This document shows positions 7,187 to 24,483 of a DNA stretch of 64,000 nucleotides, piece after piece (positions within the stretch are counted from its first letter, which is position 1; every line of letters starts with the position of its first letter). The DNA lies in the NCBI GenBank assembly GCA_018814885.1, contig JAHIYU010000026.1:30079-94078 (forward strand). Reading direction: 5' to 3'. Position numbers and translations under genes: made by a program. Source of the stretch: a bacterium (GTDB lineage Bacteria; Krumholzibacteriota; Krumholzibacteriia; LZORAL124-64-63). The notes beneath the pieces are model-generated. The model was not told where the DNA came from, did not search any database, and saw only the letters and a list, made by a program, of their open reading frames with translations.

Positions 7187-8035
7187 CTACAGGTAATCGC
7201 GCAACAACGACCGTCCGGCCGTCTGACGCATCTTGCGCAGCGCCTTTTCCTTGATCTGTCGGATGCGCTCGCGGGTCAGCCCCAGGCGCTTGCCGATGGC
7301 CTCCAGGGTCAGGGCCTCCTCCTCGCCCAGCCCATAATAGAGACTGATGATCATGGCTTCGCGTGCGGAGAGCGATCGCAGGCTTCGGCGTACGTCCTCG
7401 CGCATGACACGATCGTAGAGCCTGTCGTCCGAGCCCGGCTGCGAGTCCGCGGCCAGGGTCTCGATCAGGGGGCGGTCGTCCGTGCCCTGATCGTCCAACC
7501 CCACTTCCCCACCGTTGAGCTCCAGGGAACGTCTCACGTCCTGCGGCGACAGGTTCAGCTCGTTGGCGATCATATGATCGGTCGGGTTCTCGTTGCCCTC
7601 GCTCTGCAGCTTGGTGCGGGCCCGATTGATCTTGAGCAGCTGGGCGGTCTGGTTCTGCGGCAGCCGCACCAGCCTGGAATGATCCAGCAGGGACTGCAAG
7701 ATCGACTGCCTGATCCACCATACGGCATAACTGATGAACTTGAAGCCACGCGTCTCGTCGAAACGGTCGGCGGCCTTCAGCAGACCGATGTTGCCCTCGT
7801 TGATGAGGTCCGCCAGCGTCAACCCCTGATGGACGTAACGCTTGGCCACCGTGACCACGAAGCGCAGGTTAGCGTTGACCAGGCACTTGAGGGCTTCCTG
7901 ATCCCCTTGGTGTATGCGAGAAGCCAACTCTGTCTCATCTTCGCGGGACAGCAACTTGTACCTGTTGATCTCCTTGAAGTAGATCTCCAGGCTCTTCTCA
8001 TGAGTGGGAGGCAGGATGGACGTTCTGGTAGCCAT
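7187..8035 (-). CDS. Short RpoD/SigA-family sigma70 factor (regions 1.2-4, no region 1.1)
   Basis: YFKEINRYKLLSREDE, LVNANLRFVVTVAKRY, GFKFISYAVWWIRQSI, LTRERIRQIKEKAL. Confidence 0.93.
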   Translation of the reverse strand: MATRTSILPPTHEKSLEIYFKEINRYKLLSREDETELASRIHQGDQEALKCLVNANLRFVVTVAKRYVHQGLTLADLINEGNIGLLKAADRFDETRGFKFISYAVWWIRQSILQSLLDHSRLVRLPQNQTAQLLKINRARTKLQSEGNENPTDHMIANELNLSPQDVRRSLELNGGEVGLDDQGTDDRPLIETLAADSQPGSDDRLYDRVMREDVRRSLRSLSAREAMIISLYYGLGEEEALTLEAIGKRLGLTRERIRQIKEKALRKMRQTAGRSLLRDYL

Positions 8036-8098
8036 GATGTCCTCCTCTCGTGGGGTGCGCATCCGGCTGGAGTCCGGGGGCGGGGCCGGGATGAAGCC

Positions 8099-9547
8099 CT
8101 AGCCCTCTCTCGCTCCAGGATCGGGTTCGAGCAGGCGGTATCCATCCATGCCGCCGGACTCTATCAGCAGGGATAAGGTCTCGCTGCTGCCCGCCAGTTC
8201 CTCCCGGAGTCGCTGAAAATCCTCGGCGCCGGCAACCGACCGGCCGTTGATCTCCAGGATTACGTCCCCGGGCTGCAGACCCGCGTCGGCCGCCGGTCCG
8301 TCCGGCGCCACTGCGATGACCATCATTCCCCGTTCTCCTTCGACGCCGAGGGCGTCCTTCAAACGCCGCACGCGGGGATCGCCGCCGCCCAGGGGGGCTA
8401 CGGACATCCCGTGCCACGTATCTTCCCGGGCCGTATTTTCGCTTCCGGCCTCCGGCTCCTCCGCCGGCACGACCTCGAGCTCGATCCGTCGCCCGTCACG
8501 CAGGACCAGGCAGGAGGTGGCCTGTCCGATCTCCGCATCGCTGACGAGGAACTGCAGATCGTGGTCGTCCGCCACGTCCTCCCCGGCGAAACCTATGATC
8601 ACGTCGTTCGCGAGCAGCCCGGCGGTCTGCGCAGGCGAACCAGGCAGCACCGCCTCTACCAGCGCGCCCTGTCGTTTTCCGTCCTGCAGGTGGTCGCTGG
8701 TGCGCGCCCCCAGGTAGCCGCGAATCATGCGGCCATGAGCCACGATCTGTTCCAGGACACGGCGAGCGTAATTGCTCGGTATGGCGAATCCGATGCCCTG
8801 GGCGGATTTGTTGATCGCCGTGTTGACGCCGATCACCCGACCGCCCAGATCGAGCAGGGGGCCGCCGCTGTTGCCGAAGTTGATCGCGGCATCCGTCTGC
8901 AGGAAGTCCTGATACCTGGGTGCTCCACCGTGAATGACGAGGTCGCTGCGTCCCTTCGCGCTGACGACGCCCACAGTGACGCTGCCTTCCAGATTGCCGA
9001 AGGGGTTGCCCACGGCTATGGCCCAGTCGCCTACCCGCACGATGTCCGAGTCGCCGAAAGAAAGAGGTGTCAGGGGAGCGCTTCTCTCGATCTTGAGCAC
9101 GGCCAGATCGCTGCCGGGATCGCTGCCGACGACCACCGCTTCGTAGGTGTGGCTCTCCCCCCTGAAGCGGACGCTCACCGCGTCGGCCCTGTCGATCACG
9201 TGGAGGTTGGTGAGGATGTGTCCGTCCCGGCTGACCACGAAGCCCGTGCCGCTGCCCGTGGGATTGAAAGGCGCGCCCTCTCCCCTGTCGTCGGGGAAGT
9301 AGCGCCTGTACAGTTCGTCCATCGGGTCGAGATCCAGGCCGCCGCCGGTAACGGAGCGTTCGGCGCGGATGCTGACCACGAGATCGCGTGCGCTGGAAAC
9401 CACGGCGGTGAACGGAGAAGCCGGTGCCGGGGTATCATCCACCCGTGCCAACCCCTGGGCGCAGGCGCCTGACGTCGAGAGCGCGCCCAGCATCGCGCTC
9501 GACAACGCGATGCACGCCATGAAGGTAAATGATGAACGCACGGACAT
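8099..9547 (-). CDS. DegP/HtrA serine endoprotease with two PDZ domains
   Basis: GSGTGF, catalytic H (LTNLHV), D (SDLAVL), S (INFGNSGGPL), two PDZ units, signal peptide. Start uncertain (9547 or 9595). Confidence 0.92.
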   Translation of the reverse strand: MSVRSSFTFMACIALSSAMLGALSTSGACAQGLARVDDTPAPASPFTAVVSSARDLVVSIRAERSVTGGGLDLDPMDELYRRYFPDDRGEGAPFNPTGSGTGFVVSRDGHILTNLHVIDRADAVSVRFRGESHTYEAVVVGSDPGSDLAVLKIERSAPLTPLSFGDSDIVRVGDWAIAVGNPFGNLEGSVTVGVVSAKGRSDLVIHGGAPRYQDFLQTDAAINFGNSGGPLLDLGGRVIGVNTAINKSAQGIGFAIPSNYARRVLEQIVAHGRMIRGYLGARTSDHLQDGKRQGALVEAVLPGSPAQTAGLLANDVIIGFAGEDVADDHDLQFLVSDAEIGQATSCLVLRDGRRIELEVVPAEEPEAGSENTAREDTWHGMSVAPLGGGDPRVRRLKDALGVEGERGMMVIAVAPDGPAADAGLQPGDVILEINGRSVAGAEDFQRLREELAGSSETLSLLIESGGMDGYRLLEPDPGAREG

Positions 9548-9707
9548 CTCAGCTTGCTCCCTGCTCCAATGCACCGACACCATCGTCGGCAACACACGGA
9601 GCCGCTGGAAAGCGGCTCAAGCCGGACGCTTCGTGGGAAAAGCGACAGGGTGGGATGAATCACGTTTCGCCGGAGCCGTTGCGCCGGCCAGTTGCAGGGA
9701 TGGAACG

Positions 9708-11060: not shown

Positions 11061-12011
11061 TCAGAAGTCACCGGAGCCGAAGCCCATCTCCAGGGCGAAG
11101 CGATGGCCGTCCCCCAGGTCGTTCAAGGCGTCCTGGTAGGCATAGCTGACTGTGATGTCGCCGCGCGTGAAGCCGGCACCCGCAGTCAGGCCCTGGGACG
11201 TGTAGTTGATCTTGGTGCCGAAACGCAGGGCGAGGGCAGGCACCATCCTGTACTCCACGCCCACATGGGCCTTGGAATTCCCGTCGTTGGGAAAGACGAT
11301 GTCTCCGGCCAGGGTCACCTTGTCCGCGAAGATGTCATGTGCAGGATCGAAAGCCATGCCGACCCGCAGGATGGTTGGCAAGGGGTAGGACTCGCTGTTC
11401 AAGGTCAGGCCCTGACCGAAATGATTGAGAGAGGCGCCGAACCACAGACCTTCGATAATGGCCTTGTGAGCGATCGACAGGTCGTACGCCAGCCCCGTAT
11501 CGCCGTACATGTCGATCTCTTCGTGCAGCAACTTGATCATGGCGCCTGCGGCGAAGGTCTCTGAGATCTTGCGGGCATAGGAGAAGCCGAGAGCGACCTG
11601 GTAAGGCCGGAATGTCCCCAGCGGGACGCCCACGTTGACCTCTTCGTATCGCTCCATCTCCTCGGCGTAGAAGCCCGAGAACATGAAACCCAGGGCCCCG
11701 AGATCGGTGCGGTGGGCGATGCTCGCGGTCTCCTTGTCGAAGAGGCCCCACATGCGCTGGTGTTGCAACAGCAGGTCCGTGCCGTTCTCCTCGAAGACGA
11801 GCAGGGCCGGATTCCAGTATACCGCGGCTGCGCCCCTGGAAAGGGCCACGCCTGCTCCGCCCATGGCCGCCTCGCGCGCACCGACGGCGGTGCGCAGCGA
11901 GAGAAATCCGGACTCTCCCGGCGTGCCGGCCGACGCCAGGGTGCAAAAAGACAGCACGAGGATGCCCAAGGCGGGGGCGGTGAGACGGTGCATCAGGCTG
12001 GTTCTGCTCAT
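11061..12011 (-). CDS. PorV/PorQ-family outer-membrane beta-barrel
   Basis: FLSLRTAVGAREAAMGGA and YWNPALL PorV-like N-terminus, alternating beta strands, GHRFALEMGF end. Start at MSRTSL. Confidence 0.8.
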   Translation of the reverse strand: MSRTSLMHRLTAPALGILVLSFCTLASAGTPGESGFLSLRTAVGAREAAMGGAGVALSRGAAAVYWNPALLVFEENGTDLLLQHQRMWGLFDKETASIAHRTDLGALGFMFSGFYAEEMERYEEVNVGVPLGTFRPYQVALGFSYARKISETFAAGAMIKLLHEEIDMYGDTGLAYDLSIAHKAIIEGLWFGASLNHFGQGLTLNSESYPLPTILRVGMAFDPAHDIFADKVTLAGDIVFPNDGNSKAHVGVEYRMVPALALRFGTKINYTSQGLTAGAGFTRGDITVSYAYQDALNDLGDGHRFALEMGFGSGDF

Positions 12012-12094
12012 TCCCGATCCTTTCCACCGCGCAGCGGGCGCGGGTGCTTGTCCGGGTCGGACTTCATCCTCATCCAGTCGCTTGCCGACCGGCA

Positions 12095-15000
12095 TCAACG
12101 GGCGATCACCACGGGGCGCACACTCACCTCTCGGGAGCCGCCATCGTCGGCGATCAGACGGCAGATGTACACGCCCGACACGACGGACTCTACGTCCAAC
12201 AGGATCTCGACGGGGCCGCCGCGCGCCTGCACGACTGCCGAAGTCCGCACTTCCTCTCCCTCGAGATTGTACAAGTATGCCCGCACCTGGCAATCACGAT
12301 TCGCCAGCGCGCGCACGTGCAGTTCCTCGCCGGTCAGGGGTGTAGGGTAGCAGATATGGCTGCTGGATGTGAGCAGGGCTGCCCCTACCGGCGGCGCCGT
12401 CACGGCCCCAGCCGTTTCCGCACGTCGATCGGAGCCGCCCCACATGGGCCAGATCTCCACGGCGTCCGCGGTTCCCGGCAGACTCCACGCGGAGAGCCTG
12501 GAGACCGGATCCCCCGTGGGATCGCCAGAATCGTCATATCCACTGATACGCAGAATCGAGCCCACCGCCACCAATTCCAGCCCGGGCATCCCATCCAGAT
12601 CCATCAACAGCGGCGTGCCGGCGGTCTCTCCGGGACCCGCCAGCGGCCACCCGGACGCGAGCCGCCCGTCCCGATCGTACAGAAAGAGACGGCCGTCTCG
12701 CGATGCGAAGAGTGTATAGGCTCTTCCGCCGATCTGGGCCACGAGGGGCGATGGAGCACCGGCACCCCCGGTCGCCGTCACGGAGATCCGGGGCGCCACA
12801 GGCCATCCGGTGAGCGGGAAGCCACCCACGCCCGCCAAGACGAATCCAGCCTCGGCCACATAGCCGAGGCCCGGAGCCAGCGGCGAGGTCACGCCGGCCC
12901 ATTCCGGCCAGGCCTCGACCCCGGCAGCTTGGGGGCCATCCCAGATCATGGCGCCGCCAGTGATGGCAGGGATGATCAGAACGTCTTGTCCCGCAAACAT
13001 CAATACGCCGGAAGGTTGTCCGGGAAGCTCTACGAAACTGTCATTTTCACAATCTGCCAGGCGCCAGACGGCATCCACATCATCATACACGGGCAGCAAT
13101 GTGAGTCCACGCCAGCGGGTGGGAGGTGAGACCGCCTCGAGACCGGTGTCCGTCAGGATGTGGATCTCTTCTTCTGCCAGGTTCCAGTAGTGCAGACGCA
13201 GCCGCCCGTCCACATCCCGGCGTTCGACGATGATGGCCACATCCCTCTCCGCAGCCGAGAGCGCCATCGGGACCACGACGGTCGGTTGGCTGCAATGCTC
13301 CAGGGGCAGCACCAGCCCGTAGCTGGCGCCGTCCGCGTCGCCGTCGATCATTTCGCTGCCGTCCTCGCCGTTGAACGCGTACAACCCGGAATCCGCCGTC
13401 AACAATATTTCCGGCAGGCCGTCGAGATCGAGATCGCCCACGGCCGCCGGACCGTTCCAGCTCACGGGCTCCCCGCCCGGCCCCTTGCCCACGGCGAACA
13501 GGCCGGTCAGGGGTGAGCCTTCGCGGAAGCTCTCGAGATCATGATCGAACGCGAAGACGCGTCCCCTATCTCCCGTGGCCACGATCTCCAGCACGCCGTC
13601 CCCGGAACAGTCAAGGTCGACGGCCAGCAGGTGCGAACCGCGCAGGTCGACGTCATTCAACTGGAGAGTGGCCACGGGTTCGGGCGCGCCGCTGGCGGTC
13701 ACGTCCGTCCGACGGCACCGGAAGGTCATGGAGCCCGCGTACCGGATCACGGTATCCCCTGAGAATGGAACCACATATGCCGAATCGGCCACCACGTTGC
13801 TGATCATGTCGATGAGGATGCCGGTGGGGACGCCGCCCGACGTATCGGTCGAGGGAGAGGTCTCGGGGCCGAAGACACTGGAGTCCTCCCCCCGGAAACT
13901 GTCGTAGTCGGCACCGAGCACCCACGCCGAGGGGATCCGGCGGTCGAGATCCTGGATGCCATCGGCTTCCTCCAGATCCACCGACTTGCGAGCCGGGTCG
14001 GCGTTGAAGATGTTCTGTTCAGAGAGGAAAGCGGCCTGGATCACACCCTCGTCGATGTGCCAGATGTACAGACCGCTGCCGGCCCCCTTTGCGCCGTCCA
14101 TGCGAGCGTCGTTTTCGCTCATGAAGAAATCGAATTCCGCCCCGAAGAGCCATTCGCGTTCGTCGTGCTCCGGGTCGTACCAGCTCGTGGGAGTTCCGTC
14201 GCGGTAAATCGAGTCAGCGTCGTAGAAGTCGGGTATGTTGTTGCCGTTCAGGTCGCCCGGGAATGAGAAGATTCCGTTGCCGTCCGGATCCTGCTTGCGG
14301 TATTCTAGCAGCCAGTATTCGCTCGGTCCGATCTCGACGCGCGCCAGCGCCGAATCCGCGGCAGCGTGTTCTGCGGGATACAGCCGGAAGAAGCCGTCGG
14401 CGTCCGGATCGATTGTGTAGGGGTCCAGCCAGCCCATGAGCATCTTGTTGAAGGCGCAGGGATGGGCCGGGATGAAGCCGGCCCCGACGAACAGACCATA
14501 CCCCATCAGGCCGAACTCCCCGATGCCCTGGCTGTCGGGATGGCCGGACGGCGTGAAATCGCTCAGCGACAGCATACCCAGGCGCAGTCCCACCTCGAAG
14601 CAATAGACGCCGAGGGAGCCGAAATAGCCGCCGACACTGGCCACCGAGTCCTGGAACTCGTTTTCCGGCAGGACCAGCACCTGGTCTATGGTCACGGGCT
14701 CCCCGCCGGCGTACGCGTCGCCCGTGGGCAGCCACGGGTCGGGTATGATGTCCTCGTCCCTTGCCTCCGCGAATGCCTCCAGTCCCAGGTAGCTGCTGTA
14801 GATCTGCTCGGGCGAGTCACCGAGAATGTCGGTTTCCTCGCCGGCTCCGGCGTGAATCAGGACCACCGTGTCGAAGCGCGAGAAATCGACCTCACCGTCC
14901 AGCAAGGTGACAGCGTCCAAGGCCATTAGCACCTTCTGCTCCCCTAGTTCGGGATGATTCCCGTACCAGTTCATCGGATGAGGCAGGTTCGCCACGTTAC

Positions 15001-15492
15001 CGGCAACTTCGAAGGCGAAGGTGAAATGTCCCCCGCTGACGACATCGAAATAGGCCTGCACGTCGGTCATCTGGTGTTGATAGTAAGTCGAGTCGTGGGC
15101 CAGATAATAGAAATCGCTCTGGGCGGGGGGGGGAAATCTCCGGAGACCTGTCCATACCTGCCATAGAACAAACTGTCGGCGAAATCGCACATCAACACGA
15201 CTGCGAACAGGCTGTCGGGCGCTGCGTGGCCAGCCATACGGGCGGCCTGCAAGGACCGCGATCCTTCCTCCATCAGACGTCGCGCGCTCGCGCTCAGAGC
15301 CGGCTGGGCGTGCACGGACCAGGTTTGCCCAGGTCCGAGAGCGGCTGCTCGCGAACCGTCGGGTCTCGACGGGGGCCCGGCCGCGGCATGGACCGCGCAT
15401 ATGGCCAGCGACAGCCCCCACAACGCAACGGCGAACGCCGCCCGTCGGCATGCCGACGGGATGGCACCTCGGGCCTCGTCCCGGGTCAGCAT
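12095..15492 (-). CDS. Secreted M6/InhA-like protein with FG-GAP/VCBS-like repeats and T9SS-like CTD; frameshifted at a C9 tract; zinc motif degenerate
   Basis: Signal peptide and VVLMCDFAD in one frame (track ORF 15067..15510). The rest (YFDVVSGG, IHAGAGEE, EYWLLEYR, GLYIWHIDE, DLEEADG, GDLDLDGLPEI, YPTP..SGVY) is in another frame (12095..15451). The junction is at 15125-15133. Confidence 0.8.
15125..15133 (-). repeat. C9 homopolymer at the frameshift junction
   Basis: Plus strand c-GGGGGGGGG-aaa. C10 or C7 would join GDF-PP(P)-AQSDF in frame. Confidence 0.85.
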
Positions 15493-15552: not shown

Positions 15553-15581
15553 ATAATAGGCTCCCGCTCCGGGAGCGTCAA
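15553..15581 (-). promoter_or_regulatory. Putative sigma70 promoter for the M6-like/porV operon
   Basis: Minus strand TTGACG-N17-TATTAT about 60 nt upstream of ATG 15492. Confidence 0.65.
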
Positions 15582-15817
15582 TCGACGCCTAGGCACCGCC
15601 ACTCACGAATCGCCGGGGAAACGATGGCAGTGGAGCTGGAGATCTAACGCCGCCACCCCTGATTGGCATTGTCTTCACTCCCGCTCCACTGCATCTCGTC
15701 GGTGATCGGCCGCTGACCGGATCGGCTGCCCGTTCCCGCTCGGTGCCAACCTCTTCAAGGATCAGGTCCTTTCCGGCCAGCCAGCGATGGGGGGATTGAT
15801 CACTCGACTCCCTGCCG

Positions 15818-17602
15818 CTAGCGCTTTGCGCCGCGGTTTGAACTTGACCTGCCGCCACCCTTGCCGCGCGGCGACGATGAGGAGCCGGAGCCTTGGCTGC
15901 GTGTCGAGCCGTCACTCTTGCTCCCGCTGTTGGACTTGGGCTTCACCGATGAGGGTGAGCGTTCGTTCGGCGTATTGCCGCCCTCCGGCTTTGCCGTCTG
16001 AGGCTTGCGCGTCGGGGTCTTATCGCCATCGGATCGTGGTTTGGCCTCCGGTGCCTTGCGTGTCGGTTCGTCATTTCCTGGGCGAGGCTTGACGGTACGC
16101 GCAGGCTTCTGGTCGCGGCTGCCACCTTGCCAGATCCGCGAACCCTGAGTGTGGGGCTTGACAGGGCGCACGGCGCGGACGTCGTTCACCTGGGGTGCGG
16201 TCCGGGTGCCGGGCGACACGCGAATGGGCTGCTGGCCTTCGGAGGCATCGGGTCGCACGGGACGGGCATCCTCCCGGCCGTCGCGGCCTGTGGCGGGGTT
16301 GGGCCTCACTGCGGGCCCGTCGGTGCTGTTGCGACCGACGCCGCTCGGCATCCTGATACCCGGCGCCCGCTCGTCGCGGGGCTGCTTAGTGAAACCGGCG
16401 ACCGGCTTCACGGCTCGGCCGGTGTCCTTGAACTCGCGGCGTGCGTCCACTCTCTGGTCGGACCTGCCGAGTTCCTGCTTGCGGATCGCCTCCTTGCGGT
16501 TCATGGACGCCACCATGTCCTTGGTGGGACGCGGCGTCTTCACGATCGCACCAGGATGTTCGTAGTCTCGTTCACCTTGGTTGTCTGCGTACCGGTGGTT
16601 CTTGACGATCGGCCGGTAACGCTGGCGGCCTTCCTTGTATCTGACCCAGACATCCCCGCGCCAGTACGGCGAGTAGTTCCAGACGTAGCAGTCGAAATCC
16701 CAGACGGAATACCCCCACGTAGGCCAGGCGTACCAGGGCCGGTACCAGTAGTTGATCCACGGGCGCCAGGTCCAGGGATCCACGTAGTAGTAGACGGGGT
16801 AGTAGTAGGCGGGGTAATACTGGTAGCGGCCGTACCAGTCGTTATCCCAGCTGTAATCGTGATGGATCTCGATCAAGCAAGTATCGCTGTAGGGCTGGTA
16901 ACTGCTGTCGTCGTGGCACTGCGTGCACATGTAACGGGGGTAATCGACCTTGCGGTGCACATAGTAGCTCAGATAGTTGGTCACCACGTAGTCGGAAGGA
17001 TCCTCGAGCCCGGTCACGGCGTAGTTGACGTCGTTCATGGCCAGGAATGGATCGCCAGCCACGTAATAACCTTGCTCCTCTTGCCCGCTTTCGTGGTGGA
17101 AATCCACCTCCAGGTTACGCAGGTCGAAGGGGTAGGCGGAAACGAGAACCTGCACATATTCTACACCTTCCGTGCCGGCGGTCCTGATGCGTTCGGCGCC
17201 CGGTGTTGGCAGGTTGTATGTGTGATTGCCGAAGACGAAACCGTCGTCGTAGCGGCTTCGCGGCCAGAGTATGGACACCAAGCCTTCGGCATCGATACGA
17301 TACACCACGGCATAGGCGTCGCTGTTGGCCTCGAAATGGATGCGAACGGCCTCCCCGCGCTGGTAAATCTCGTCGTCCCCGCGATCGTGCCAGATGTTCA
17401 CACGGTAGGGCTGGTTCTCGAACCCGTTCCAGCCGTCCGACATGGCGGGTGTCCCTTCGGCAGGCTGGGCCCTGGCCGTAGCGAAGCCCACCGCGAGAGC
17501 CAGTGCGATCAACACTGACATCGCCACGCGCAGCCCCGGACTGGGCTGGGACGATGTTGCTCCGCAGGCCGGCTTGAAGTTCATCACTCGTTTCGTCTTC
17601 AT
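15818..17602 (-). CDS. Secreted DUF4384-domain protein with CxxCH, Trp/Tyr-rich middle and disordered basic tail
   Basis: Signal peptide (ALAVGFATARA), DUF4384-like YQRGEAVRIHFEANSDAYAVVYRIDAEG..ILWP, CTQCH, YYPAYYYPVYYY, P/K/R/S-rich C-terminus. Confidence 0.75.
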   Translation of the reverse strand: MKTKRVMNFKPACGATSSQPSPGLRVAMSVLIALALAVGFATARAQPAEGTPAMSDGWNGFENQPYRVNIWHDRGDDEIYQRGEAVRIHFEANSDAYAVVYRIDAEGLVSILWPRSRYDDGFVFGNHTYNLPTPGAERIRTAGTEGVEYVQVLVSAYPFDLRNLEVDFHHESGQEEQGYYVAGDPFLAMNDVNYAVTGLEDPSDYVVTNYLSYYVHRKVDYPRYMCTQCHDDSSYQPYSDTCLIEIHHDYSWDNDWYGRYQYYPAYYYPVYYYVDPWTWRPWINYWYRPWYAWPTWGYSVWDFDCYVWNYSPYWRGDVWVRYKEGRQRYRPIVKNHRYADNQGERDYEHPGAIVKTPRPTKDMVASMNRKEAIRKQELGRSDQRVDARREFKDTGRAVKPVAGFTKQPRDERAPGIRMPSGVGRNSTDGPAVRPNPATGRDGREDARPVRPDASEGQQPIRVSPGTRTAPQVNDVRAVRPVKPHTQGSRIWQGGSRDQKPARTVKPRPGNDEPTRKAPEAKPRSDGDKTPTRKPQTAKPEGGNTPNERSPSSVKPKSNSGSKSDGSTRSQGSGSSSSPRGKGGGRSSSNRGAKR

Positions 17603-17638: not shown

Positions 17639-18556
17639 TTAGAAGCGAACGATCTCGTCTTTTCTGGCGCCACCGGATTCCCTATCGGCTCGCACCTTCA
17701 GTTCCCTGTTGAAATTGTCGATCTGGTAGGCCCAGTCCACGTCTACGTAGTTTTCTTCCTCGGCGTACACATAGAACTTGGCGTAATGCACGTTCGTATC
17801 AGGATCTTCCGTGATCTTGACGATGTAGGAATGCCCCTCGATCAATTCGGCCCGACCCGCGTTGGAATATCCCGAATCGGGAGCGTAATCGACATAGTCC
17901 AGGGGTATCGTACCGTAATCCTGGAGATGCACGATGTCCGGTCGCGCGGCGATCACGAAGGGGACGCCCTCCGCGAAGGCGACATAGATGTCTGCAGTGG
18001 GCGCGTCCCAGGCCATGCGACCGTCAGCCAGCCGGCTGAAGTCGAAACCGCTGCGATCGGGATGAGCGCCGTACCTGTCATATAGCAGAAGTTCGTACCC
18101 GGCCGGACGGGGCGTATCCACGACCGTTTCGAAGCTCAGCGTGCTCTCGTTGCCACTTTCGTCGAAAGCCAGCACGGCATAGTAATAGGTCTCGCCGTTC
18201 ACGACATCCTCATCGTCAAACCAGTGCAGAAGCGTCTGCTCGTCGAAATTCTCGTCCCAGGCCACATCGCCCAGCCAGTAGTAGGCACCGTAGACGGGAT
18301 TGTTTCCGTCATGGCGGTAGACGGCATAGCCGATCAGGTCGAGCTCGTATATGTCGTTCCAGTACACCGAGACAACTTCGTCGCCGGTCACAGTGAATAC
18401 CCCGGTCGGCACCGCTGGCGGATCATCGTCGATGTACGTCACATCCTCGTCGCAACCCAGCATGGCCACCGAGAAGATCAGGACTGTCATGAGCCCCATG
18501 AATCTGCCCAGACCGGCACCAAGATGCCTGGTGTGTACTGGATGATTGGTTCCCAT
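17639..18556 (-). CDS. Lipoprotein with FN3-like domain and an uncharacterised (possibly HmuY-like) C-terminal beta domain
   Basis: Lipobox AMLG-C, PPAVPTG..VYW..YAVYR..GETYYYAVLAFD..GNES FN3 pattern, then GFDF..GHSYIVK..YAKF..DWAYQ. SD GGGAGG. Confidence 0.7.
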   Translation of the reverse strand: MGTNHPVHTRHLGAGLGRFMGLMTVLIFSVAMLGCDEDVTYIDDDPPAVPTGVFTVTGDEVVSVYWNDIYELDLIGYAVYRHDGNNPVYGAYYWLGDVAWDENFDEQTLLHWFDDEDVVNGETYYYAVLAFDESGNESTLSFETVVDTPRPAGYELLLYDRYGAHPDRSGFDFSRLADGRMAWDAPTADIYVAFAEGVPFVIAARPDIVHLQDYGTIPLDYVDYAPDSGYSNAGRAELIEGHSYIVKITEDPDTNVHYAKFYVYAEEENYVDVDWAYQIDNFNRELKVRADRESGGARKDEIVRF

Positions 18557-18606
18557 GATTCACCTCCCGTCTGGTTCAGCAGTCAGGTATTCCTGATTCC
18601 CTATTA

Positions 18607-18622
18607 CGCACGGGACGTGCCA
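18607..18622 (-). promoter_or_regulatory. Putative sigma54 (-24/-12) promoter for the lipoprotein-DUF4384 operon
   Basis: Minus strand TGGCACGTCCCGTGCG with GG and GC 10 nt apart, about 50 nt upstream of ATG 18556. Confidence 0.65.
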
Positions 18623-18892
18623 ACAGGCAGACCGAGCCTCTCGCAGACGTCGAACAGCCGTCCGGTATGTACGTTCCTGGCCGTATCTCCTTTATTTACC
18701 GGGGAATTCAGGGGGTATACCACGTGCCACGATTGGCAATTGGCAAGGGAACTCCAGAATCGCTTACGGGAGCGGAGAGATCATATGTCTCTCCTGATGA
18801 TCAACCGATCCCCGAATGAGGACGGTGCGGCACGAGGCACGGGTCCCCTAGTCGATTCCCGCATATCGGCTCCGTTGCGTCCATCGGCGGTC

Positions 18893-19221
18893 GATAAGAG
18901 AAAGAAAGAGCCTCCAGCCCGCCATCGGGCTGCCCGGTCCTGAGTCTCGCCACATCAGGATCGGGGTGGCTCTTTCTTCTCAATCATGATCTTGTAGAAC
19001 GGATATTCGGAAGGGAAAGGATTCACAGCTTTCTCCACTCGGTGTGCGGATCGGCCTGGACCCCACATCCAGATCAACTCGACACGAGTCTCATCGTTGA
19101 AAACTCCCCTCATACAGCCGGTTGTTGATGAGGGCGTGAATCCGTTCCCCTTTCCGGGTTCCTTGATGAATCAATGGGTCGGTGCAAGTCCATCCCTGCA
19201 ACTGCTCCCACCCTCTTTCGA
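18893..19221 (-). ncRNA. Candidate sigma54-dependent small RNA (GGA-rich 5' part, three-way junction and U-rich 3' end)
   Basis: No credible ORF. Begins ~12 nt downstream of the -12 element at 19233, has 8 GGA motifs in 19105-19208, and ends in a multi-stem structure at 18902-18978 followed by CUCUUUCUUUCUCUU. Confidence 0.4.
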
Positions 19222-19231
19222 GAGCAATCAT

Positions 19232-19247
19232 TGCAGGCCGCATGCCA
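19232..19247 (-). promoter_or_regulatory. Putative sigma54 (-24/-12) promoter directly downstream of the TPR activator
   Basis: Minus strand TGGCATGCGGCCTGCA with GG-N10-GC spacing, close to consensus TGGCACGNNNNTTGCW. Confidence 0.6.
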
Positions 19248-19385
19248 ACGTCCTACTTGGCAGTAACTTTGTAACTGACTTTCTCCATTGAGATTACAGA
19301 CGCAATCCCGCCAGCTCGTATGACAAGGCCATGACCATGGGCAATAGAGTTCGCATCTGTACCATCGATATCATAACTTCCTTCA

Positions 19386-19398
19386 AATCAACATGTTG
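19386..19398 (+). promoter_or_regulatory. IHF-like site in an AT-rich tract
   Basis: AATCAACATGTTG matches WATCAANNNNTTR. 19381-19440 has only 19/60 G+C. Confidence 0.35.
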
Positions 19399-19455
19399 TG
19401 ATATAAATATATTTTACACCCACTCAGGGTAAGATAACAGGAATTGCCATATGGG

Positions 19456-22400
19456 TCAGGAGTTGTCGAGGCCGTAGACACGGACCTTCTTTAGCAGATT
19501 CGGGTAGCTGATCCCCAGCAGACGAGATGCTTCAGCCTTGTTTCCGCCCGTGTGTTCGAGGGTCCGCATGATCTCTCGGGCCTCGACCGCGCCGATGGTT
19601 TCGCGCAAGGGGGAAATCGCGCGCGCGCCATCGCCGTCGGGAAGAGATCTTGTGACCTCGGGAGGCAGATGTGATATGCGCAACATGGGCTCGCCATGGG
19701 CGAGCACGATGGCTCGGTTGATCGATTTGACCAGTTCGCGGACGTTGCCAGGCCAGTCATGCTGCGCCAGGGCCTCCATGAAGGAGGAGGTGCAGCCGGG
19801 AGTCTCGATCCTCGTTAGCGCGACATAGCGGGCTATGAAGTGCGTGGCCAGCAAAGGAATGTCATCCTGGCGGTCGCGCAGGGGGGGGACAACAACCGGG
19901 AAATCGAGCAATCTGTAGTACAGATCCTCTAGATAAGTGCCACATCCGACTTTCTCCTTCAGATCGCTCTTCGTGGCGCAGACGATCCGCACATCCACAA
20001 CGCGGCTACGATTGGACCCCACCGGCCTCACCGTATGCGTATCGATGAAGTGAAGGAGCTTGCCCTGCATGCCCAGCGGCAGTTTCCCGATTTCGTCCAG
20101 GAACACTGTGCCGCCCGCGGCCTCGGCGAGCAGACCCGTCTTGTCAGCGATAGCGCCTGTGAAACTGCCCTTCACATGTCCGAAGAGTTCGCTTTCGAGC
20201 AGCGATTCGGGGATGGCCGCGCAATTGATGGCGAGGAACTTCCGGTCCCTTCGCTCGCTGAGCCTATGGATGGCATGGGCCAGCAGCCCCTTGCCGGTCC
20301 CTGTCTCGCCTTGCAGCAGCACCGTCAACTCGCTCGCAGCTACCTTGCGAATCAGGACCAGCATTTCCCGCATCTCGGCATTGCGGGTGATGATCTGGGA
20401 GAAGGCCTCGTGCCTGTCGCTCTCATCCCAGGAGACGGCGACCGGCCTGTTGCGTTCCTCCTCCGCGAGCGACATGGCAAGATAACCAGCCGCCGCGGCC
20501 ATGTGGTCGAGTACGGGTTTCAGAGCCAGACCATCGTCTTCGTCCCTGGTGCGTGACCCCAGGCAGAGCACGCCGTAGCATTTATCCGGCACGGCCACGG
20601 GCAGGAACAGGCATGAATTGCAGTTGGATGCCAGGCCGGGCACTTCCTCCAGGACATCCTGGGCCAGATCGGTGCGCGTCAAAAGTCGGGGTGTAGGAAC
20701 TTCATCCACGCGCGTCTCCGTAAACCAGAACGCCGCCTGATGTGCCACAGGGCGTGAGAGTCCTCTGGTCACGATCCTGGCGCCACCGCCAACAGGTGCC
20801 GCCCAGGGTTCGAGGACGACAAATCCCATGTCCGCCGAGGCGCGCGACATGCACGAATCAAGGAAAGTGGCCAGGGTATCTTCGGTGATCGAGCCATTTT
20901 TCAGCGATATGACAGGCGCTACCGGAACCTTCATCTCAATGGATGGCCATGCGCCGACCAGGGCCTTTTCGATGCGAATGCGCAGATCGCCGTGCCGTGA
21001 AAGCAGATCCGGATCGTCAACGTTCTCAGCGGCGCGTTCGAACTCGCTGGCCGTCAACAACGCTTCGTCCAGGTCGCCGAGCCGCAGCAGCACCTCGGCC
21101 AACCCGGCTTGCAGGCGGCAATAGAGGAGATCGTCTGCCCGGGATTGGGCACCTTCGAGAGCATCGTGGAGACTGCGGCGCAGACGCAGCAACTGACTGC
21201 GGCCTCCGCGTTCCAGGCTGAAGTCGAGGCTGGCCAGGATGGCTCTCGATGCGAGCCGCGGCAAACGCTGAGAATTGAAAATCTTGATCGCCCCGCGGAA
21301 ATGATCGTCGGCTTGATCGTCTTCACCGAGATTGGCCAAGGCTTCGGCCAGGGCCAGATAGCAGAATCCGAGTTCGTAATCCTCTCCACAACTCTGGCAA
21401 ACAGTGATGGCAGCCCGGGCGAATTCGGCCGCCTGCAGCCAATCGCTCGCCTGGAGGCTGGCCTCGGCGCAACGGCGCAGCAATTCGCCTTCGAGATCGG
21501 TGAGCGTGTTGATGCGTTTGGTCTTCTCGAGGCCGAGGCCGTAATTGTAAAGGGCCTTCTCGCTTTCTCCGCGCTCGAGCAGCAGATCACCCATGTACTC
21601 GTCGGCAATTATCGATTCGCGCATGAAGCCGGCTTCATCGGAGATGTGCTTGCCGGTGAGGATGAGTTCCTCGGCGCGCAACAGATGGCCCTCTATGAGT
21701 TCCAGTTGACCGAGCGCCAGGCTGGCCTTGGCCTGACGGTCCATATCCCCGAGACTGACGGCAAGACGCAAGCTCTTCTCGAAGGCCGCGCGCGCCTCGC
21801 CCGGAGATTCGGCCTTGCGCAGGATGATGCCTTCGTTCAGGTGCAAGCGGGCCAGCAGGTGGGACGCGCCATGCTCGCTGGCCAAGGCGATGGAGCGGTT
21901 CTGGTACTCCATTGCCTTGTCCCAGCGACACGCGTTCTTGTGTACCAAGGCAAGGTTGTTGTAGAGGGAGGCCATACCGAGTTCATCGCTGATACGACGG
22001 AAAGTCGCCAGGGCGTCGGTGTAGAATTCCTCGGCTTTGTCGAGTCGGCCAAGCCGATGATGACAGACACCCATGGTGACCTGGAGGTTGGCCACTTCGA
22101 CGTGATCGTCGGTGACGGCCAGTACTGCGAACGCACGTTTGCATATCTGCAAGGCGTCCTTGTATGCGCCACGCTGCGTGTAGAGGGCGGCGTGGCGTCC
22201 CAGGAGCGGTGCTATCAACAGCCGTTCATCGGCCGGGTCGAGGTTCTCGACGGTCGCTATGAAGCCATCGGCATCATGCAGCAATCGCTCGGCCAAGGCG
22301 AGGTCACCCAAATTGAGCGCCGCATCTATACTCTTGCGGCAGATCTCCAGGATATGAGAGACCTCGAGCTGGTTCAGGGCCGCGGAGGCGAGGATGCGCT

Positions 22401-22557
22401 GGTAATAGTCCAGGGAAGTCGAGAAGGCCGAGGCTTCGAAGTGCAGATCACCCACTTCCTCGAGGCGCACGAGAGCGGCAAGATCCGCGGGCACGCCATG
22501 CCTCATGGATTCAGTTTCGTCTTGTCGTCGTCTTTCAAACTGGTGATCCATCGACAT
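19456..22557 (-). CDS. TPR-GAF-sigma54 AAA+-Fis HTH transcriptional activator (bEBP without receiver domain)
   Basis: ~500 aa of TPR-like helices (e.g. MGVCHHRLGRLDKAEEFYTDAL, LYNNLALVHKNACRWDKAMEYQ), a GAF-like segment, GETGTGKGLLA, ESELFGHVKGSFTGA, FLDEIG, WPGNVREL and GNKAEASRLLGISYPNL. Start 22551-22596. Confidence 0.92.
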   Translation of the reverse strand: MSMDHQFERRRQDETESMRHGVPADLAALVRLEEVGDLHFEASAFSTSLDYYQRILASAALNQLEVSHILEICRKSIDAALNLGDLALAERLLHDADGFIATVENLDPADERLLIAPLLGRHAALYTQRGAYKDALQICKRAFAVLAVTDDHVEVANLQVTMGVCHHRLGRLDKAEEFYTDALATFRRISDELGMASLYNNLALVHKNACRWDKAMEYQNRSIALASEHGASHLLARLHLNEGIILRKAESPGEARAAFEKSLRLAVSLGDMDRQAKASLALGQLELIEGHLLRAEELILTGKHISDEAGFMRESIIADEYMGDLLLERGESEKALYNYGLGLEKTKRINTLTDLEGELLRRCAEASLQASDWLQAAEFARAAITVCQSCGEDYELGFCYLALAEALANLGEDDQADDHFRGAIKIFNSQRLPRLASRAILASLDFSLERGGRSQLLRLRRSLHDALEGAQSRADDLLYCRLQAGLAEVLLRLGDLDEALLTASEFERAAENVDDPDLLSRHGDLRIRIEKALVGAWPSIEMKVPVAPVISLKNGSITEDTLATFLDSCMSRASADMGFVVLEPWAAPVGGGARIVTRGLSRPVAHQAAFWFTETRVDEVPTPRLLTRTDLAQDVLEEVPGLASNCNSCLFLPVAVPDKCYGVLCLGSRTRDEDDGLALKPVLDHMAAAAGYLAMSLAEEERNRPVAVSWDESDRHEAFSQIITRNAEMREMLVLIRKVAASELTVLLQGETGTGKGLLAHAIHRLSERRDRKFLAINCAAIPESLLESELFGHVKGSFTGAIADKTGLLAEAAGGTVFLDEIGKLPLGMQGKLLHFIDTHTVRPVGSNRSRVVDVRIVCATKSDLKEKVGCGTYLEDLYYRLLDFPVVVPPLRDRQDDIPLLATHFIARYVALTRIETPGCTSSFMEALAQHDWPGNVRELVKSINRAIVLAHGEPMLRISHLPPEVTRSLPDGDGARAISPLRETIGAVEAREIMRTLEHTGGNKAEASRLLGISYPNLLKKVRVYGLDNS

Positions 22558-22640
22558 TGTCCCCCGGCGAGAAGGCGGGCAATTCGACTCGGTCACGACT
22601 CCTGAAGGCTGGGCCTGATCCGGCGCTCAAATGGAGGCAA

Positions 22641-22970
22641 TCAGATCAGACCCTGATACAACAGCATCGTCAATAGCGCGAGCCACTGGTCAAAATCGGC
22701 TTCATTCAGATCTGGTACCCCCGCAAGGGCAGAGAGATCGAAAGTATCGCCTGTTGCACCATTGTTCCGGTTTCCGGTGATGGCGTCATCGGGATCGCCC
22801 AGGCACTCGAATTCATCACCCGGTACGACATTCTGGGGAGAGTTCGTGGCTGGTGAATCCTCTTGAAGCATGATGTCCTGAGCAGACGCTGCCGCTCTGG
22901 CGATACCGGGACCGGTCGATACCGCTGCCAGGGTCAGGAGCAGGCTTAAACTGATAAGTGCTCTTTTCAT
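22641..22970 (-). CDS. Small secreted acidic protein (109 aa), candidate signalling-peptide precursor
   Basis: SD GGAG, Sec signal MKRALISLSLLLTLAAVSTGPGIARA, acidic middle with CLGDPDD, hydrophobic end FDQWLALLTMLLYQGLI. Confidence 0.7.
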   Translation of the reverse strand: MKRALISLSLLLTLAAVSTGPGIARAAASAQDIMLQEDSPATNSPQNVVPGDEFECLGDPDDAITGNRNNGATGDTFDLSALAGVPDLNEADFDQWLALLTMLLYQGLI

Positions 22971-23077
22971 GATCCCACTCCACATTCTCGAGATCGGGGC
23001 GGCTGTTTCCCCGAAATAGGTGTTCAAGACGAACACGCAGGACGAACCGCATGTCACCTCAAGTCCTTACCCCTTAT

Positions 23078-23106
23078 ATTCTATGGGTGTTTTGGATATC
23101 TGTCAA
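23078..23106 (-). promoter_or_regulatory. Near-consensus sigma70 promoter for the small-protein/TPR-activator operon
   Basis: Minus strand TTGACA-N17-TAGAAT. Confidence 0.8.
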
Positions 23107-23121: not shown

Positions 23122-24483
23122 TCATTCGCCAGCCTGGGTCTGCAGCCCATATTTGCTGATCTTCTTGTACAGGTTGCTGCGTTGCATACCGAGCTGTTCG
23201 GCGGTGCGGCTGACATTGAAGCGGTTCTCGCGCAGTTTAGCCTGTAGGTACATCGATTCGGAACGAGCCTTGAACTCCTGGAAATCGGTGCAGCTCATCC
23301 AGTCCCACTCTCCAGCCCTGGTCTCGGGTCCGCTGCCTGATAGGACGGGCAGATCCTTCGGTCTGATCAGATCGCCAGGGACGAGAATCATCAGCCTTTC
23401 CACGAGATTGCGCAGTTCGCGCACGTTACCGGGCCAGGCATAGGTGCGAAGCAGGGCGAGTGTCTCCGCCGTGAAGGTCTTCGGCTTCTTTTTGAGCTGG
23501 ACCGCCATCGCGGACATGAAATGCTCCAGCAGAAGACTCACGTCCCCTCCCCTCTCACGCAGGGGGGGCAGTTCGACGGACAGCACGTTCAAACGGAAAT
23601 ACAGGTCCTGGCGGAAATTGGCTGCGGGACCGGTGAGGTCTCGGTTGGTTGCGGCCACGATCCGTACATCGACCTGACGCGCTTCGCGACCACCGACACG
23701 CTCGAAGCGGCTCTCCTCCACGGCCTTGAGCACCTTCGCCTGGGCTTCCTCGCTCATGTCGCCGATCTCGTCGAGGAACAGCGTGCCACCGTCGGCCTGT
23801 TCGAACTTTCCCACGCGCATCTTATCTGCCCCGGTAAAGCTGCCTTTCTCGTGGCCGAACAGCTCGCTCTCGACGAGTTCGCGCGGAATGGCCGCGCAAT
23901 TGACCTCTACGAGAGGCATGTCCCGACGAGGACTGCCGGCATGGAGGGCCCGTACCACCAGCTCCTTGCCCGTTCCATTCTCGCCGGTGATCAGGACGGT
24001 CGCAGCGGTAGGTGCGACGCTGTCGATGAAATCGCGGACCTCGCGGATACGCGCGCATTCTCCGATCAACGGCTTGTTGTAGCCGCTGCGATCGCGCAGA
24101 TCCTCTGTCTGCCCGCGCAGGCCGAAGTGATCGAGGCAGTTCTGGAGGGTCAGCAGCAGACGCGACCTGTCAAGCGGCTTCTCGAGAAAATCGTAGGCGC
24201 CCTTACGAACGGCCTCCACGGCGGTCTCGACGTTGCCGTGGCCGGAGACCACGATGACGGGGACCTCGAACCCGGCGTCGGTCATCCTCTCCAGGACCTC
24301 GAAACCGTCCATGTCGGCCATCTTGATGTCCAGCAGCATTACATCGATCCTCTTGTCCGCGAGGATCGCCAGGGCTGCGGCGCCATTGGCGGCCAGCTGC
24401 ACCGCGTATTGCTCGTAGGTCAGCAGCTGCTCGAGCGTCTGCCGGATCGCGGCTTCGTCGTCTACGACCAGGATCGTGCGCAA
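23122..24483 (-). CDS. NtrC/NtrX-family sigma54-dependent response regulator
   Basis: ILVVDDE, LLDIKM receiver; GENGTGKELV, ESELFGHEKGSFTGA, WPGNVRELRN; Fis HTH. Confidence 0.93.
   Translation of the reverse strand: MRTILVVDDEAAIRQTLEQLLTYEQYAVQLAANGAAALAILADKRIDVMLLDIKMADMDGFEVLERMTDAGFEVPVIVVSGHGNVETAVEAVRKGAYDFLEKPLDRSRLLLTLQNCLDHFGLRGQTEDLRDRSGYNKPLIGECARIREVRDFIDSVAPTAATVLITGENGTGKELVVRALHAGSPRRDMPLVEVNCAAIPRELVESELFGHEKGSFTGADKMRVGKFEQADGGTLFLDEIGDMSEEAQAKVLKAVEESRFERVGGREARQVDVRIVAATNRDLTGPAANFRQDLYFRLNVLSVELPPLRERGGDVSLLLEHFMSAMAVQLKKKPKTFTAETLALLRTYAWPGNVRELRNLVERLMILVPGDLIRPKDLPVLSGSGPETRAGEWDWMSCTDFQEFKARSESMYLQAKLRENRFNVSRTAEQLGMQRSNLYKKISKYGLQTQAGE

Follow-up and report, generated by a model that had tools for sequence, protein, structure and literature searches.

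Several regulatory modules are known in which a bacterial enhancer-binding protein (bEBP) works with sigma-54 on a small RNA (sRNA) gene. These include CbrB-CrcZ, LuxO-Qrr and GlrR-GlmY. The crcZ gene is the immediate downstream neighbor of cbrB, and its RNA, a few hundred nt long, is A-rich, has little structure and serves as an Hfq/Crc sponge. The Qrr sRNAs are about 100 nt long and Hfq-dependent, and LuxO is controlled by phosphorylation. In Pseudomonas, CbrB directly activates the sigma-54-dependent sRNA genes crcZ and crcY via TGTTAC/GTAACA subsites and integration host factor (IHF) (PMC6296734). The Qrr RNAs of Vibrio depend on sigma-54 and a bEBP and belong to a quorum-sensing circuit with negative feedback by sRNA (PMC2680268), and the luxO mRNA is itself a Qrr target (PMC3262071). 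Multiple enhancer sites lie upstream of the sigma-54 promoter of norVW (PMC2831303), and sigma-54 has been proposed to be mainly a controller of the cell exterior (PMC3162934). A further point of comparison is the RRNPP family of peptide sensors, whose signature is a receptor of about 250-500 aa (285-473 in validated cases) and a propeptide of 10-100 aa (21-50 in validated cases) (PMC10075063). Here we describe a locus in a 64-kb stretch of DNA, the window, from a bacterium of the Krumholzibacteriota (contig JAHIYU010000026.1, positions 30,079 to 94,078). It contains two sigma-54 promoters, a structured noncoding RNA (ncRNA), a large TPR-containing bEBP, a small secreted protein and a cell-surface operon. 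We think it probable that these form a sigma-54 regulatory module that is conserved across the phylum and works by the mechanism proposed below. In the literature we found no description of the TPR-bEBP architecture or of sigma-54 biology in Krumholzibacteriota. All coordinates are positions in the window, and all genes of the module, with the regulatory elements described alongside them, are on the minus strand.

It is well supported that the 899-bp gap after the activator gene, which is poor in open reading frames (ORFs), holds a new structured ncRNA gene, and that this RNA is the main output of the first of the two sigma-54 promoters, promoter P1. The RNA is about 325 nt long (18897..19221), ends in an intrinsic terminator and is supported by covariation, folding and an RNA contig. 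Over about 320 aligned nt it has the invariant blocks CAGGGA, ACCGGC, GUUYUCAWC-N26/27-GAKGUGGGGUY and GGCGAGA. Helix P1 is a 5' hairpin with the loop UACAGGGA. It is followed by a long-range helix of ~18 bp, helix P2, which encloses P3 (loop ACCGGC), P4 (GUUYUC:GARAAC) and a long P5/P6 hairpin capped by GGUGGGG. The 3' domain consists of helices P7, P8 (loop GGCGAGA) and P9 and a final U-run. The terminator is formed by the P7 stem AAAGAGCC/GGCUCUUU with UCUUUCU, is flagged by a terminator scan at 18920-18908, and is itself conserved and covarying; in the alignment the segment terminates in AAAGAGCC...GGCUCUUUCUUUCU.

The structure is upheld by compensatory changes. RNAalifold on 14 copies of the RNA gave 45 pairs, 28 of them with compensatory double changes. 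After cleaning, the structure has 50 pairs and is 91.8% paired, with double changes in 31 pairs and 107 cells. None of 500 shuffles was as good, and slid controls were 37-55% paired. All 17 copies that were folded independently by minimum free energy took the same architecture, and the window copy folds at -138 kcal/mol (z=-4.49). Because G-U pairs are frequent, the strand of the RNA is fixed. A search of the window region against Rfam 15 gave no match to this RNA at E<=1, and an ortholog gave only chance-level matches (E>=0.49, far below gathering scores). Known families, including RNase P, tmRNA, 6S and the large ncRNAs of Rfam, were considered and did not match. A sponge of the CsrB/RsmZ type was also considered and rejected, since the GGA count (1-14) is at or near the shuffle expectation in most of the 17 copies; the helix P1 loop UACAGGGAU alone resembles a CsrA site. 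A profile of the RNA detects a single copy in the window and 24 copies in the compared loci. A two-motif DNA-pattern scan of metagenome contigs returned mostly chance matches and, after filtering, at least about 14 true RNA loci.

The two sigma-54 promoters frame this RNA. Promoter P1 (TGGCAT-N5-CTGCA, TGGCATGCGGCCTGC; 19233..19247) precedes it, and promoter P2 (TGGCAC-N5-GTGCG, TGGCACGTCCCGTGC; 18608..18622) precedes the gene for a lipoprotein. Both match the reference pattern TGGCAC-N5-TTGCW (GG at -24, GC at -12, fixed spacing). They are the only matches to TGGCAY-N6-TGC in the 64 kb, where chance would give about 1.5 per window, both strands counted. For their strand of the 899-bp gap the expectation is about 0.011 sites, and the chance of two there is ~6e-5. 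The position of promoter P1 is conserved in 17/17 related loci (consensus tTGGyAyG-N5-TGC), and that of promoter P2 in all 16 loci that reach far enough downstream (consensus TGGCAyg-N5-TGC). Every gap has exactly two positionally conserved sites, the first about 190-250 nt past the activator stop codon and the second 50-90 nt before the lipoprotein gene. The original prediction, made from this DNA alone, had named both GG-N10-GC promoters and a local sigma-54 circuit with its outputs encoded alongside. Both promoters stand, and the RNA and a surface operon lie downstream of them. That prediction had overlooked the RNA gene, a second candidate activator and the presence of two enhancer types.

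Each promoter has its own putative enhancer. Enhancer region 1 (19270..19418, from an alignment of 17 loci) lies upstream of promoter P1 and begins 38 bp after the stop codon of the TPR activator. It contains two TGTAAA-N5-TTTACA palindromes, E1 (19402-19418) and E3 (near 19337-19357, degenerate in the window copy), and two elements of the form TAAC-N17-GTTA, E2 (19374-19398) and E4 (19270-19298, in an IHF-like position). Within about 12 kb per locus, the TGTAAA-N5-TTTACA type occurs almost only here. Enhancer region 2 (18786..18823, from an alignment of 16 loci) consists of two tandem (T)GTCC-N8-GGACA elements about 20 bp apart. It starts just after the RNA terminator, 165-200 bp upstream of promoter P2. 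The enhancer-1 palindromes were sought upstream of promoter P2 and none was found there; P2 has its own, different motif. Proximity favors the TPR activator for promoter P1, while the sequence does not fix the assignment of the putative enhancers.

Transcripts of the RNA are seen in environmental samples. In the assembled contigs of a groundwater metatranscriptome, run X4, a 214-nt contig is identical to 19006-19219 and has a depth of 42.8, as against depths of 3-9 for contigs over the flanking genes. A DNA run from a biofilm sample is flat at about 13x. The 5' end of the RNA contig, 19219, is 2 nt from the sigma-54 start at 19221 that is predicted from the -12 GC at 19233/19234. The activator mRNA contig ends at 19314, and no RNA joins it to the ncRNA contig. 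Three other metatranscriptome studies (marine sediment, salt marsh and sediment) have contigs of the same segment that are 85-92% identical. The run X4 contig stops at 19006, directly after the 3' strand of the long-range helix, and the contigs of the other studies stop within about 7 nt of that point.

The gene before the gap encodes the TPR-GAF-bEBP, a protein of 1031 aa (19456..22551) that we characterized with Pfam, orthologs, AlphaFold and Foldseek. Alignment with 16, then 73 orthologs places its true start at the ATG at 22551 and not at the GTG at 22596 of the longest ORF. It is made up of a TPR superhelix (residues 24-532; 20956-22482), a GAF-like domain (residues 557-700; 20452-20883), a sigma-54 AAA+ domain (residues 720-885; 19897-20394), a lid (residues 892-972) and a Fis-type helix-turn-helix (HTH; residues 988-1024; 19480-19590). 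The Pfam matches are three TPR_12, TPR_MalT, Sigma54_activat (PF00158, E=1.8e-62), AAA_lid_14 and HTH_8 (E=7e-10), and there is no Response_reg match in Pfam. The original prediction of an activator with TPRs, a sigma-54 AAA+ domain and a Fis HTH but no receiver is therefore right. Its GAF-like region holds up weakly for the window copy, where the GAF profile gives E=0.02-0.06 and AlphaFold places an alpha/beta domain at residues 557-700 (predicted local distance difference test (pLDDT) 58-87). Orthologs match GAF_2 at about 1e-6 over 125/136 positions, about the gathering score, and a PDB sequence search with this region gave no match. The Walker motifs GETGTGKG and FLDEIG are invariant in the orthologs. 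The sigma-54 contact loop reads GSFTGA (ELFGHVKGSFTGA) in place of GAFTGA, and its G, F, T and A are invariant in 74 orthologs. By its AAA+ domain and contact loop the protein qualifies as a bEBP, with the function of the Ser variant being a prediction.

The AlphaFold model has a pLDDT of 86 at full length and of 94.9 (predicted TM score 0.92) for the TPR domain alone. The latter contains 26-27 helices arranged as about 13 TPR pairs over residues 24-532, followed by a disordered linker. In Foldseek the AAA+ domain matches ZraR, FleQ, FlrC, LuxO and NtrC1 at TM 0.92 and a root-mean-square deviation of 1.6 A. The TPR domain is closest to LGN/Pins, TSK, APC5, OGT and MalT domain III (TMt 0.74), with E about 1e-9 to 1e-7. 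At a TPR turn, residues 385-397 (21361-21399, minus strand) form a near-invariant CxxCGExYExGFC, and Cys208 is invariant. The cysteines of this cluster are not strictly invariant, since two orthologs each lack one of them. The cluster may be a metal or redox site, and it could, with the GAF-like domain, be the real sensor of the activator.

Orthologs of the activator form 117 full-length clusters with 44-100% identity, all about 1020-1040 aa long, and those with a named source come from 'Candidatus Krumholzibacteriia'. We compared the gene neighborhoods of eleven orthologs that range in identity from 90% to 45%, and that of one distant ortholog, L212. The eleven share one order. A divergent RlmN gene is followed by a bEBP with a receiver domain (REC-bEBP), a small ORF (100-110 aa) and the TPR-bEBP; then, after a gap of 740-1050 bp in which no gene is called, come genes for a ~300-aa protein, a DUF4384 protein and one of ~1100 aa. 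The synteny extends further upstream in most loci and is altered in L209 and L210. Since much of the neighborhood is syntenic, adjacency within the main clade alone is weak evidence that the genes are linked in function. An exhaustive HMMER search with the TPR domain found about 20 colinear relatives of ~1000-1050 aa at 28-37% identity. The distant ortholog (L212:1954-5483, on a Logan contig of 6.7 kb) is a TPR-GAF-bEBP at 35% identity in a different neighborhood, with hemA/GlutR upstream and a convergent gene for a type IX secretion system (T9SS) C-terminal domain protein downstream. On this 6.7-kb contig no REC-bEBP, RlmN, ncRNA, sigma-54 site or P2 operon adjoins it. It retains, directly upstream, a 111-aa ORF with a signal peptide, EGDPDSVTDGLG and a W/L tail. 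Because the small ORF is kept after the other synteny is lost, we conclude that the small ORF and the TPR-bEBP travel as a pair. This pairing shows coupling and not mechanism, and it is the best evidence in favor of the original idea that the small protein is sensed.

The small secreted protein of the window has 109 aa (22641..22970) and was defined from its ORF and homolog alignments. It has a putative Sec-type signal peptide, MKRALISLSLLLTLAAV...ARA/AAS, whose n/h/c layout was judged by eye; by the same judgment the pattern is kept in 22 aligned homologs. A variable acidic linker, a GDPDDAITGNR(G) motif and a C-terminal, W/L-rich hydrophobic tail follow. In the motif, G-D-P and one later G are invariant. 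The protein has no Pfam or NCBIfam match, and it belongs to a real family, which comprises 47 clusters of 93-114 aa, all unnamed. Wherever lengths allow a comparison, the contigs with a member of this family are as long as those with the activator. The 109-aa signal-peptide gene that the original prediction listed is present. That prediction also held that homologs lacking an adjoining secreted small ORF would speak against it; the small ORF is directly upstream of the TPR activator in 13/13 loci, L212 included, at a spacing of 44-136 bp. The sigma-70-type promoter that had been noted ahead of it, TTGACA-17-TAGAAT (23106..23078, score 11/12), is present and conserved: in 11 orthologous loci its -35 TTGAC[AG] is invariant, and a -10 TAnnnT is found at 17-bp spacing in most. 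It probably also serves the activator by read-through. In the groundwater metatranscriptome an RNA contig of depth 9 spans the small ORF. The spacer that follows it (22597-22640) and the orthologous spacers were also inspected. Several orthologs have a GC-rich hairpin and then a T-run or T-rich stretch; in the window copy this feature is weak. It may be an attenuator between the two genes, which would be consistent with the RNA contig depth of 9x over the small ORF and 4-5x over the activator.

The activator mRNA has a leader hairpin (22556..22583) that was recognized by nucleotide conservation in 11 loci and L212. The 35 nt before the activator ATG are conserved at the nucleotide level in all loci, L212 included. 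The stem is AUUGCCC / GGG(GA)CAAU, its 3' arm holds the Shine-Dalgarno sequence GGGGA, and the loop is (U)CUCGCC. The stem covaries, with AUUGCCC/GGG..CAAU in one group and CCGAUCC/GGAU.CGG in another, and RNAalifold gives 7 pairs, 4 of them with a compensatory change, at a weak energy. The leader loop and the invariant P8 loop of the RNA, (U)GGCGAG(A), are exactly complementary. We scanned the four loops of the RNA against the translation-initiation regions of six genes in 11 loci. The P8 loop and the activator leader were complementary over 6-7 nt in 11/11 loci, and the other 23 combinations in 0-3 of the 11. Unrestricted RNAduplex runs of the RNA against the leader gave long, meaningless duplexes, so the exact-complement scan with these controls was used instead. 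We hypothesize that a loop-loop contact tunes translation of the activator.

Promoter P2 is followed by genes for surface and secreted proteins. The first is a lipoprotein of 305 aa (17639..18556), with the lipobox LGC and a stretch that looks Fn3-like by eye; it has no Pfam or NCBIfam match. The second is a secreted DUF4384 protein of 594 aa (15818..17602; PF14326, 6.8e-13) with a basic, disordered C-terminus. These two genes are syntenic in 12 main-clade loci. Next comes a T9SS-type homolog of M6-like metalloproteases, inactivated, with FG-GAP repeats (12095..15451; NF052323 at 8e-52, below cut-off, and a weak Por_Secre_tail). It has a conserved sigma-70 promoter of its own, TTGACG-17-TATTAT (15553-15581), found by promoter scan and loci alignment. 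A weak match to a PorV-like outer-membrane protein follows (11061..12293; PF19572, E=2.8e-4, below cut-off). These surface, T9SS-type outputs agree with the proposed role of sigma-54 in control of the cell exterior (PMC3162934) and extend it. We also observed a second conserved noncoding element (15582-15800, minus strand), which is located between the DUF4384 gene and the M6-like promoter. Its invariant motifs are UCCCCCCAUC, GAAGAGGUUGGCAC and AUCAGGGGUGGC, and RNAalifold on 10 loci gives 32 pairs, 19 of them with compensatory changes. This element had no RNA coverage in run X4, and it may be a second structured RNA or a 3' untranslated region or leader element.

From these data we propose the following mechanism. 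The sigma-70 promoter would express the small secreted protein together with the cytoplasmic TPR-GAF-bEBP, whose Shine-Dalgarno sequence is sequestered in the leader hairpin. A signal, read by the TPR/GAF region, would release the AAA+ domain, which would oligomerize on the adjoining enhancer and open the sigma-54 closed complex at promoter P1. Promoter P2 would be opened by the same TPR protein or by the neighboring receiver-type activator. Transcription from P1 would yield the ~325-nt RNA, and P2 would drive the cell-surface operon with the lipoprotein, the DUF4384 protein and the T9SS-type M6-like protein. The RNA would act in trans. Its candidate target is the mRNA leader of its own activator, through GGCGAGA/UCUCGCC, in a feedback like that of Qrr on luxO. 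The genes and their domains, the conservation of both promoters and both enhancers, and the structure and expression of the RNA, with its 5' end at promoter P1, are observed. Sigma-54 dependence, the assignment of activators to promoters, the signal and the targets of the RNA are the parts of the scheme that we infer.

Several observations weigh against this mechanism. The sigma-54 dependence of promoters P1 and P2 is predicted from their sequence and from the 5' end of the RNA, and rpoN was not found among the window ORFs that were scanned with Pfam. With two activators and two types of enhancer present, it may be that the TPR protein serves one promoter only, or neither. The metatranscriptome contigs are unstranded and possibly contain DNA. 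In the run X4 library the 3' terminator domain, which carries the GGCGAGA loop, is rarer by a factor of at least 10. The abundant species may thus be a processed core of ~214 nt that lacks the terminator domain; alternatively, this small and very stable 3' domain may have been lost by size selection in library preparation or at an assembly break. Removal and instability of the domain would weaken the idea of a kissing loop. Since the P8 loop and the leader are both invariant, there is no covariation for their pairing, and the loci are not independent. In addition, L212 keeps the CUCGCC leader hairpin, yet its 6.7-kb contig has neither the RNA nor a sigma-54 site.

The neighboring REC-bEBP (453 aa; 23122..24483) has a receiver, a sigma-54 AAA+ domain and a Fis HTH (Pfam Response_reg 4.5e-31, Sigma54_activat 5e-65, HTH_8). 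It is an orphan without an adjoining kinase gene, and it falls below the NCBIfam cut-offs for NtrX, NtrC and AtoC. Its position is the same in 12 main-clade loci; in L208 the gene is cut by the contig end, since that contig begins inside it, and RlmN is out of view there. This protein is the second candidate activator of promoter P1 or P2. It is possible, if doubtful, that the REC-bEBP and not the TPR protein activates promoter P1 and the RNA, as CbrB does for CrcZ, or both promoters, and that the TPR protein acts elsewhere or modulates the REC-bEBP. The presence of two enhancer types alongside two promoters and two bEBP genes would suit such a division. Because the L212 TPR-bEBP has neither the REC-bEBP nor the RNA nor a sigma-54 site nearby, the RNA and the REC-bEBP may belong together, although this contig is only 6.7 kb long. 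Furthermore, TAAC-N17-GTTA is built on hexamers like the CbrB subsites TGTTAC/GTAACA (PMC6296734). However, the target promoter usually adjoins the gene of its cognate bEBP, and the P1 enhancer starts 38 bp past the TPR-bEBP stop codon. The RNA P8 loop, moreover, matches the leader of the TPR-bEBP and not that of the REC-bEBP.

A second reading of similar standing, which we hold to be tentative and somewhat unlikely, concerns the signal. Here the small protein and the TPR activator would be partners without an imported peptide. For example, the small protein would report envelope or secretion (Sec/T9SS) status, with the TPR domain capturing un-exported precursor that builds up in the cytoplasm. 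Alternatively, the small protein would be simply a co-expressed envelope protein, and the activator would sense a small molecule, a metal or redox state through the GAF-like domain or the CxxC...C cluster. The pairing of the two genes is conserved and the outputs are secreted, T9SS-type surface proteins, which agrees with such a role. Small ligands are sensed by GAF-bEBPs, NorR among them (PMC2941729), the TPR domain matches the small-molecule sensor MalT domain III at TMt 0.74, and CxxCGExYExGFC is near-invariant. On the other hand, any ligand is hypothetical, the Cys residues are not strictly invariant, and capture of the precursor is speculative.

The original prediction went further and proposed an RRNPP-like quorum-sensing module wired to sigma-54. 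The small protein would be exported and processed, and a peptide (e.g. around GDPDDAITGNR) would be re-imported and bound in the TPR groove, switching on the activator. The genetic part of this proposal stands, since the signal-peptide ORF is directly upstream of the activator in 13/13 loci and is kept when other synteny is lost. The small ORF also evolves fast outside a single 12-residue acidic motif. The fold of the TPR domain most resembles LGN/Pins, whose groove binds extended peptides, and this domain has many Arg, Lys and Asn residues that are invariant in the orthologs. Of the five features of the RRNPP signature, a TPR receptor and adjacency at 44-136 bp are present, and the putative Sec-type propeptide, judged by eye, would be a third (PMC10075063). 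The sizes do not fit, however: the receptor has 1031 aa instead of 250-500, and the propeptide, at 109 aa, is longer than the 21-50 aa of validated cases and exceeds the detection limit of 100 (PMC10075063). The activator lacks an N-terminal HTH, and the top 50 Foldseek matches of its TPR domain include no Rap, NprR, PlcR, PrgX or Rgg structure. An importer and a processing protease are not known here, and cell-cell signaling would have an outer membrane to cross. The motif is nearly invariant across the phylum, unlike diversifying pheromones, and the GAF-like domain and the Cys cluster are alternative sensors. The adjacency could equally be explained by a protein-protein partner or a co-expressed envelope factor. 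We therefore consider peptide import of the RRNPP type unlikely. A combined scheme, in which the TPR-GAF activator senses its own secreted mini-protein (or a fragment or un-exported precursor of it) and switches on a structured RNA that kisses the activator leader, would couple surface or secretion status to sigma-54 feedback in a way undescribed in diderms. It is a rather improbable scheme.

Two alternatives concern the gap itself. It is very unlikely that the ~325-nt element acts in cis as the leader of the downstream operon, as a riboswitch or attenuator with signal-dependent read-through at its terminator. The element is upstream of the operon on the same strand, with a terminator at its end, and a low-depth RNA contig (3.4) covers 18572-18849, upstream of promoter P2. 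However, the operon is preceded by a separate, conserved sigma-54 promoter and enhancer located downstream of the RNA, and the spacer is variable (113-425 nt) and unconserved. No RNA coverage links 18850-19005 to the RNA, and the depth of the RNA is 10x that of the operon. That the gap encodes one or more small proteins instead of an RNA can practically be dismissed, since the open stretches of 50-70 codons in the window copy conserve neither a start codon nor a frame, a 1-nt indel lies between invariant motifs, and the covariation preserves base pairs, G-U included.

Some further observations concern relatives of the activator and the wider window. A 'TPR-only' relative, P0118, was rejected as a new architecture, as it is a frameshift-split ortholog in the same synteny. 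In L211 (contig_55174) the ortholog appears split into ORFs of 726 aa and 324 aa, and RlmN and HhH-GPD are split too; this is probably a long-read frameshift error and not a real two-gene variant. A genome-contig scan with the full-length activator alignment, keyed on the AAA+ motifs, returned one full-length TPR match, L001, and otherwise only generic bEBPs. In this protein of 1421 aa (L001:532-4797), from a metagenome-assembled genome of Cloacimonadota, a P-loop NTPase region at the N-terminus (GxxGxGKS, judged by eye and probable) appears to be fused to TPRs, a GAF-like region, a sigma-54 AAA+ domain and an HTH, a STAND-like bEBP architecture. Neither a small ORF nor an RNA gap adjoins it, and we rejected it as a counterpart of the activator, as it is a longer and different fusion. 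Elsewhere in the window, on the minus strand, 6154-9595 holds an HtrA-type protease (8099-9595), a sigma-70-family factor (7187-8062), an M23 peptidase and an AmiC-type amidase with LysM. Also on the minus strand, envelope context within 39271-61605 includes a Bat / MoxR / DUF58 / vWA cluster at 39-48 kb, TolB/TonB_C genes at 51.8-54.3 kb and a Porphyromonas-type peptidylarginine deiminase with a FlgD_ig tail (59845-61605).

In gene order and logic, the described systems closest to this locus are the bEBP / sigma-54 / sRNA modules CbrB-CrcZ and LuxO-Qrr. The arrangement of cbrB and crcZ and the size of CrcZ match those seen here. CbrB is, however, a receiver-domain response regulator of the kinase CbrA, whereas the nearest activator here has TPR and GAF-like sensors. 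The RNA is also different from CrcZ in being G-rich and tightly folded with covarying helices, and is unrelated to it in sequence. LuxO resembles the activator in its AAA+ domain (TM 0.92), and the proposed pairing with the leader loop would be the same kind of feedback, though predicted only; the RNA here is three times larger than Qrr. With the GAF-domain bEBPs NorR, NifA and FhlA the activator shares the series GAF-like domain, AAA+ and Fis HTH. The NorR profile aligns from residue 660 (in the numbering of the 1046-aa ORF), and the activator reaches no NCBIfam equivalog cut-off for NorR, NifA or FhlA. The multiple enhancer sites are like those of norVW, but the additional 500-residue TPR superhelix N-terminal to the GAF-like domain is unlike all three proteins. 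MalT domain III, STAND-type sensors and LGN/Pins are alike in the TPR superhelix architecture, as is also reflected in the Pfam match to TPR_MalT. In contrast to STAND-type sensors, the activator has no NOD/NB-ARC ATPase, and its output is a sigma-54 AAA+ motor.

The likeness to the RRNPP systems (Rap, NprR, PlcR, PrgX and Rgg) is that a cytoplasmic TPR regulator adjoins a small gene with a putative Sec signal and that the pair is inherited together. RRNPP receptors have an N-terminal HTH, whereas the activator, at 1031 aa, has a C-terminal AAA+ domain and Fis HTH. They are found in Firmicutes, whereas this module is in a diderm phylum and its TPR fold is nearer to LGN and MalT. The module is thus not to be filed as an RRNPP member, even though the co-inherited secreted mini-protein may offer sigma-54 systems a way of sensing peptides or proteins that differs from the RRNPP circuits of the Firmicutes type. 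The findings add a structured RNA family of ~325 nt, absent from Rfam and expressed in nature, in a phylum with almost no experimental biology. With a defined promoter type and candidate regulators linked to it, the RNA is directly testable. What is distinct in this module is the combination of TPR and GAF-like sensors without a receiver, a large new RNA family and a secreted mini-protein that is inherited together with its activator.

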